Below, piece by piece: positions 14,649-15,539 of a DNA stretch of 58,887 nucleotides. The position numbers were made by a program, and so were the translations under genes. The stretch lies in assembly GCA_944390525.1 (NCBI GenBank), contig CALXQH010000027.1, forward strand, positions 1 to 58,887. Direction: 5' to 3'. The DNA is from an uncultured Clostridia bacterium (lineage in GTDB: Bacteria; Bacillota; Clostridia; TANB77; CAG-508). The notes below the pieces were generated by a model. That model saw only the letters and a program-made list of their open reading frames with translations, did no database searches and was not told where the DNA came from. Position 1 is the stretch's first letter; every line of letters begins with the position of its first letter.

Positions 14649-15539
14649 TTATTCTGCTACTTCTTCTGTAGTAGCTTTTTTTCTTGTTCTTTTTGGCTTT
14701 TCTACTTTTTCTGTTTCTTCTTGTTTAGATTCAGTTTCTTCTATTTTTTTAGGTTCTTCTATAGTTTCTTCAGCTTCATTTACAACTTCTTCAATATCTG
14801 TAGGTTCTGTTGCTACTTCTTCTATTTCAGCAGATTGTTCTAAAGCTTCCATAGATTCTCCTTGTTTTCCTTCAATTACAGCATTAGCCATACTGTCTAC
14901 AATTAATTTAACAGCACGAATAGCATCATCATTTCCTGGAATAGCATAATCTAAATCTTCTGGGTTACAGTTAGTATCTACTAAACCAACTACCGGAATT
15001 CCTAACTTTTTAGCTTCTAAAATTCCAATTCTTTCTTTTTTAGGATCAACTATAAACATAACTCCTGGAAGTTCTTTCATTTCTTTAATGCCACCTCAAT
15101 TTTTTTCTAGTTTTTCCATTTCTTTTTTTAATAAAATAACTTCTTTTTTTGGTAATACTTCAAAAGTACCATCTTCTTGCATTTTTTCAAGTTCTAATAG
15201 TCTTCCAATTCTTTTTCTAATAGTTTCAAAGTTTGTTAGAGTACCACCTAACCATCTTTGATTAACATAATACATTCCGCATTTTTCAGCAGCTTCTTTT
15301 ACACATTCTTGTGCTTGTTTTTTAGTTCCTACAAATAGAACTGTTTTGTCTGCTTCTGCTTGTTCTTTTAAGAAAGCATAAGCTTCATCTAATTTTTTAG
15401 ATGTTTTTTGTAAATCAATAATGTGAATACCATTTCTAGCTTGAAAAATATATTCAGCCATTTTAGGATCCCATCTTCTTGTTTGATGTCCAAAATGAAC
15501 ACCAGCTTCTAGTAATTGTTTCATTGCAACTACTGCCAT
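14649..15539 (-). pseudogene. rpsB: 30S ribosomal protein S2, interrupted by a single in-frame TGA (15096-15098) under the standard code
   Basis: Both halves are colinear and in the same frame: ...[34 protein letters not shown]... The TGA occupies the Leu of the conserved LGGIK motif. The C-terminus has an acidic extension. Confidence 0.9.

Follow-up and report, generated by a model that had tools for sequence, protein, structure and literature searches.

An in-frame TGA in rpsB, private to one metagenome-derived Clostridia contig, and its probable origin as a sequence error

The rpsB locus and its in-frame TGA

The window, by which we mean the whole 58,887-nucleotide stretch of DNA analysed here, is ~26% GC and carries rpsB, the gene for ribosomal protein S2, with tsf as its downstream operon partner (Table 1). 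Translation of the rpsB frame revealed a TGA triplet at the conserved Leu of an LGGIK motif, as an earlier note on the same sequence had reported. That note had also described two S2 halves which share a reading frame and otherwise look intact, in a gene unlike a decaying one. We observed the same: both halves match Pfam Ribosomal_S2 relatives at 85-93% identity and, in place of the several lesions and relaxed constraint of a decaying pseudogene, rpsB carries a single lesion and is otherwise identical to the intact allele of conspecific contigs. The remark that TGA is one substitution away from TTA was exact, and TTA is the codon that the conspecific contigs have.

Table 1. Positions of features in the window
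Feature	Position	Strand	Basis or remark
tyrosine-recombinase (phage integrase family) gene	75..1343	plus	adjoins tRNA-Leu(UAA)
tRNA-Leu(UAA)	1454..1542	minus	the window's sole tRNA
tsf (EF-Ts), downstream of rpsB in the rpsB-tsf operon	13684..14565	minus	anchor for fetching conspecific contigs
rpsB (ribosomal protein S2)	14649..15539	minus	ORF list and translation
rpsB codons 149-296 and TAA stop	14649..15095	minus	translation; same frame as the N-terminal part
ATG of conserved Met154, possible reinitiation codon	15078..15080	minus	ORF 14649..15080 begins there
SD-like GAGGTGG	15091..15097	minus	read from sequence; overlaps the TGA
in-frame TGA, codon 148	15096..15098	minus	Leu position of LGGIK
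private base in the TGA	15097	coding strand G, plus strand C	comparison with conspecific contigs
rpsB codons 1-147 and in-frame TGA	15096..15539	minus	ORF list and translation; 147-aa product
pyrimidine-nucleoside phosphorylase gene (pdp)	17014..18313	minus	split into 106 and 328 aa
pilin-like gene	28420..29361	minus	N-terminal methylation motif
patatin-like phospholipase gene	55992..56890	minus	292-codon open frame left without start codon

The SD-like GAGGTGG and the ATG described in the earlier note are both present; the ATG lies 15 nt downstream of the TGA, and stop, motif and ATG are packed within 18 nt. A two-piece S2, one of the readings offered for this arrangement, gained no positive support. 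GAGGTGG and ATG154 are candidate signals for a second piece, with a GAGG-to-ATG154 spacing of 13 nt that is long, and a C-terminal piece reinitiated there would miss L-G-G-I-K-E (codons 148-153), a stretch whose L, G, G and I do not vary within the family. All 83 homologous S2 ORFs that we compared are undivided, and the fragments occur on one contig only. Many relatives whose rpsB is intact have AGGTGG too. Since intact relatives carry the SD-like motif and the ATG as their L-G-G and Met154 codons, these elements give no evidence of adaptation to a two-piece gene; both simply follow from conserved coding sequence, (T)TA GGT GG for the motif and the Met154 codon for the ATG.

The window S2 matches thousands of proteins from uncultured gut Clostridia at 85-93% identity, all of them full-length (293-303 aa), and one match carries the NCBI name 'Clostridium sp. 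CAG:508'. The gene order of rubrerythrin, rpsB, tsf, a 560-aa membrane protein and two pseudouridine synthases is the same in relatives, some of whose rpsB loci lie on contigs of 1.2-1.3 Mb. This neighbourhood bears on whether the window gene could be a fresh pseudogene whose work is done by another, intact copy of rpsB outside this locus, which we regard as highly improbable: the gene sits in the conserved rubrerythrin-rpsB-tsf setting of all relatives, it has no change relative to the intact conspecific allele other than the one lesion, and rpsB is normally a single-copy gene.

Following the earlier suggestion that rpsB be checked in related genomes, we compared codon 148 across 88 related rpsB genes, comprising 80 GTDB species representatives together with fetched conspecific and related loci. 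The codon specified Leu in 88 of 88 (TTA 43, CTT 40, CTA 4, TTG 1) and was a stop in none. These 88 genes were located through the motif GGI[KR][DEN]M, so that all have Met154 by construction; in an 11-sequence S2 alignment, both Leu148 and Met154 are invariant. Among the related loci, L020 has the S2 most identical to that of the window (93% over residues 1-231).

TGA as a sense or stop codon

Readthrough or reassignment of TGA was another of the readings proposed earlier, and it would have UGA read as Trp (code 4), as Gly (code 25), as Leu by a suppressor tRNA, or as selenocysteine. The genome is ~26% GC and probably small, which is the setting of UGA reassignment elsewhere, and none of the ~57 real window genes ends in TGA. 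The codon counts point in the other direction. Across 17,463 codons in ~57 window genes, TGA occurs in frame once, at rpsB codon 148, and the search for further in-frame TGAs in conserved genes, which the earlier note had recommended, returned none in this set. Trp is encoded by TGG 128 times in the window, against the single TGA. In 23 long genes, 0 TGA triplets are in frame versus 610 out of frame (120 in the +1 frame, 490 in the +2 frame). Rather than recurring at conserved Trp or Gly positions, TGA thus appears once, at an invariant Leu, and the residue at this position in relatives is never Trp, Gly or Cys.

We then considered TGA as a terminator. Window genes stop at TAA (50) or TAG (7) and never at TGA. 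A reading of this absence as an unassigned UGA was dropped, because in 80 related loci (1.35 Mb) TGA ends 52 of the 1,074 ORFs that reach 150 aa, and this family rate of ~5% makes 0 TGA stops in ~55 genes unremarkable (chance ~6%, not significant). Where an ORF of 100 aa or more finishes on TGA and has homologues, its end is in most cases no more than a few residues away from that of orthologues finishing on TAA or TAG. The TGA stops at orthologous C-termini include an ATGA overlap in L001 and four genes in L020, and these two loci represent the closest species to the window. Such ends in relatives indicate that UGA does terminate translation in the clade, though few genes use it, and the organism itself most probably uses the standard code.

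For selenocysteine, relatives would carry Cys or Sec at the position, whereas all 88 have Leu. No stable RNA structure was found after the TGA: the segment from 15110 to 15030 (81 nt) folds at -6.8 kcal/mol (z = +0.66), and 145 of 200 shuffles of the segment fold at least as well. The absence of a stable structure, and with it of a SECIS-like hairpin, speaks against either a SECIS element or an element stimulating readthrough downstream of the stop.

No tRNA with a UCA anticodon was found in the window, whose only tRNA is a normal tRNA-Leu with anticodon UAA. Probes for the RF1 and RF2 cores gave 0 matches in 1.53 Mb of window and rpsB neighbourhoods, as is expected for that neighbourhood. Literature searches returned nothing on the genetic code or RF2 of CAG-508/TANB77, and nothing relevant on rpsB nonsense and readthrough. 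Taken as a property of the organism, readthrough or reassignment is not supported, given the single in-frame TGA, the 0:610 avoidance, the TTA of conspecific contigs and the relatives that terminate on TGA. On these comparisons, which covered the window and the rpsB neighbourhoods of relatives, UGA reassignment in the window's organism is close to refuted, and we assign recoding in any of its forms, programmed recoding included, a very small probability.

Two side observations concern the features touched on here. The tyrosine-recombinase gene and the tRNA-Leu(UAA) gene adjoin each other in a typical integration-site arrangement, and a mobile element may have its edge here. In related species, L035 (2751-3128) and L056 (2767-3574) have in common a TGA-ending ORF of 125 aa whose homologues elsewhere are ~146 residues longer; in L056, a further ORF of 133 aa lies 29 nt downstream. 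The two species may have an in-frame TGA in common, in a selenoprotein or a split gene.

The same species in other samples

We fetched conspecific contigs by exact look-up of the window's EF-Ts, rubrerythrin and intact-S2 proteins. The exact EF-Ts protein of the window was found in contigs of another sample, with an intact rpsB adjoining. Two contigs, each from a different sample, could be compared with the window: ERZ24773290 NODE_11079 is 99.97% identical over 6,824 nt, and ERZ28614555 scaffold_40479 is 99.93% identical over 2,747 nt. Each differs from the window at 2 positions, one of which is 15097, and within rpsB this is the sole difference. Both read CTA GAA AAA AAT TTA GGT GGC ATT and encode an intact S2 of 296 aa. 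At 15097 the conspecific contigs L006/L010 and L011 have T, giving TTA (Leu).

Exact-sequence cluster look-up placed the intact S2 allele on 3 contigs and the 147-aa and 143-aa S2 fragments on exactly 1, the window itself, which is a whole 58,887-bp contig of an NCBI genome assembly. In the same collection, neither a Trp148 nor a Gly148 version of S2 was on record, and exact-product look-up of the two fragments in the gene-position index gave no entry. Exact 51-nt patterns with N at the variable base had 0 matches in GTDB species-representative genomes and JGI metagenomes; the species of the window is absent from both. Comparison of the contigs thus showed that the TGA is private to the window contig and corresponds to a coding-strand T to G change at 15097.

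Differences among the conspecific assemblies themselves (L006-L012 and L093-L097 versus the window) comprise 15 nonsynonymous and 3 synonymous changes, and A<->C/T<->G changes dominate among them. Several sit at the ends of contigs with 2.5-3.5x coverage. To judge from this pattern, the differences look like assembly noise rather than selected variation, and they suggest a noticeable error load in public low-coverage assemblies of the species.

Other genes in the window carry lesions of their own. The pdp gene is split by a 1-nt C insertion at ~18010 (TCT TTG [C] GGA ATA CCA); in related species the gene is intact, encodes 432 aa and reads SLGIPVAKMSGRGLG. The same insertion is found in conspecific L007, L008 and L009, from three other samples, which indicates a genuine lesion, fixed in the species as far as its contigs were sampled. 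A pseudogene is the likelier interpretation of this locus, a +1 frameshift site the less likely one. The patatin-like gene has an extra C after codon 8, at ~56866 (ATG AAT ATA GGA TTA TGT TTA GCA [C] GGT GGT GGC), in common with L093, L094 and L095. L093 and L094 have a further 2-nt deletion at window positions 56290..56291, which marks the gene as a decaying pseudogene; programmed +1 frameshifting at a rare CGG was set aside for this gene in view of that second deletion in other strains.

In both pdp and the patatin-like gene, a C is inserted directly before GG, which makes CGG. This is the rarest sense codon of the contig (4 of 17,463), one occurrence being the pdp site and the others lying at 5022, 30115 and 33279. 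Coincidence, a mutational signature and hungry-codon +1 frameshifting are candidate readings of the CGG at both frameshifts. Separately, the pilin-like gene spans three reading frames, with at least 2 frameshifts, and includes a 62% GC patch at 28451..28550 within the 26% GC contig. The variable region of a diversity-generating retroelement was considered for this patch, and no second copy that could serve as a template repeat was found within the window.

Error or true mutation, and comparison with known systems

Of the four readings given in the earlier note, reassignment and a two-piece S2 fell away, and a base-call error and a strain-specific nonsense mutation survived, both being compatible with a TGA that occurs on one contig only. 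We consider the TGA to be probably a consensus, base-call or assembly error. A single coding-strand T to G change at 15097, in one metagenome-derived contig, would turn the Leu codon TTA into TGA, and the organism would encode an ordinary one-piece S2 of 296 residues with Leu148. The evidence from sequence comparison says as much of the organism, namely that it should have an ordinary S2 and the standard code.

We asked how readily a single substitution produces such a codon. In rpsB and 23 other long window genes, 6.1% of all possible single-base substitutions create a stop. With this fraction in AT-rich genes, occasional nonsense codons made by error are to be expected in a scan of many contigs, and the rpsB TGA would be unremarkable as a chance event. 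Moreover, rpsB is essential in model bacteria, which makes a majority nonsense allele in this gene unlikely a priori. Further points in favour of an error are that a single assembly has the allele, that the position it disrupts is invariant, and that nonsynonymous and A<->C/T<->G changes prevail among the conspecific assemblies.

Illumina substitution errors are biased towards incorporating G, and 3-mers ending in GG are the most error-prone (Schirmer et al. 2016, PMC4787001). The rpsB change is to G, the direction favoured by this misincorporation; the 3-mer preceding 15097 is ATT on the coding strand and CCT on the plus strand, neither of which is among the GG-ending error motifs of that study. 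Other observations also weigh against an error. The window agrees very well with the conspecific contigs and is free of indel noise relative to them; such noise as there appears to be falls mostly in comparison contigs of ~2.5-3.5x coverage and not demonstrably in the window. In pdp and the patatin-like gene, the lineage has genuine disabling mutations, fixed in different samples, and real lesions are therefore not rare in it; these two genes are dispensable, however, and rpsB is not. On balance, we infer that the base at 15097 is an error rather than a true allele.

A genuine and recent nonsense mutation, private to the sampled strain and survived on reduced S2, is the other, less likely reading. 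The base stands in the deposited consensus, the rest of rpsB is untouched and in frame, and disabling mutations have become fixed in other genes of the lineage, whose genome is small. TGA is also a rare stop, ending ~5% of family genes and none of the ~57 in the window. Furthermore, the stop, the SD-like motif and the ATG have, within their 18 nt, the geometry of translational coupling. UGA termination is leaky in Firmicutes, where the codon is read by tRNA-Trp (as known from Bacillus subtilis), and S2 autoregulates the rpsB-tsf operon. If the stop is real, plausible means of rescue are UGA readthrough by near-cognate tRNA-Trp, yielding a Trp148 S2, and/or reinitiation at ATG154, yielding fragments 1-147 and 154-296; derepression of the autoregulated operon might compensate.

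Against a true nonsense allele stands its occurrence on one contig, with TTA in the conspecific contigs, and an essential-gene nonsense allele should not become the majority in a population. In relatives, the motif and the ATG are already there as plain coding sequence, and nothing about them shows adaptation to a split; the reinitiated fragment would lack the largely invariant L-G-G-I-K-E, the 13-nt spacing is long, and the fold after the stop is no better than that of shuffled sequence. That a natural CAG-508-like gut Clostridia strain lives with a UGA in its essential, single-copy rpsB, through readthrough and/or a two-fragment S2 and perhaps buffered by autoregulation, appears to us unlikely. 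Should the stop be real, the strain would offer a natural example of an essential ribosomal protein synthesised across a premature stop codon, with a bearing on the onset of UGA reassignment in AT-rich, shrinking genomes. For a lone in-frame stop in a metagenome-derived contig, conspecific assemblies and reads are the first things to compare.

UGA is read as Trp under table 4, in Mycoplasmatales and several insect endosymbionts, and as Gly under table 25, in Absconditabacteria and Gracilibacteria. Such codes share with the present case an AT-rich small genome, an in-frame UGA in a conserved gene and the rarity of UGA as a stop. In those codes, however, conserved Trp or Gly positions are often encoded by UGA, whereas in the window it occurs once, at Leu, with conspecifics that lack it and relatives that terminate on it.

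The rpsB arrangement resembles termination-reinitiation coupling in the close packing of TGA, GAGGTGG and ATG, and reinitiation would be mechanically possible if the stop were real. As points of difference, these elements are ordinary coding sequence that relatives with an undivided gene also have, S2 is split in no other genome compared, and the second fragment would lose six residues of the LGGIK region, four of them invariant. Leaky UGA of the Firmicute kind could likewise supply some full-length S2 past a real stop; the rpsB TGA has no structure or context that promotes readthrough, and readthrough here is hypothetical.

The remaining comparison is with consensus errors in metagenome-assembled genomes from short reads. 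The rpsB TGA departs from the errors of PMC4787001 in that no GG-ending motif precedes it. In other respects the likeness is close: a single substitution to G appears in one assembly, independent conspecific assemblies disagree with it, and it hits a gene that is normally unbreakable.
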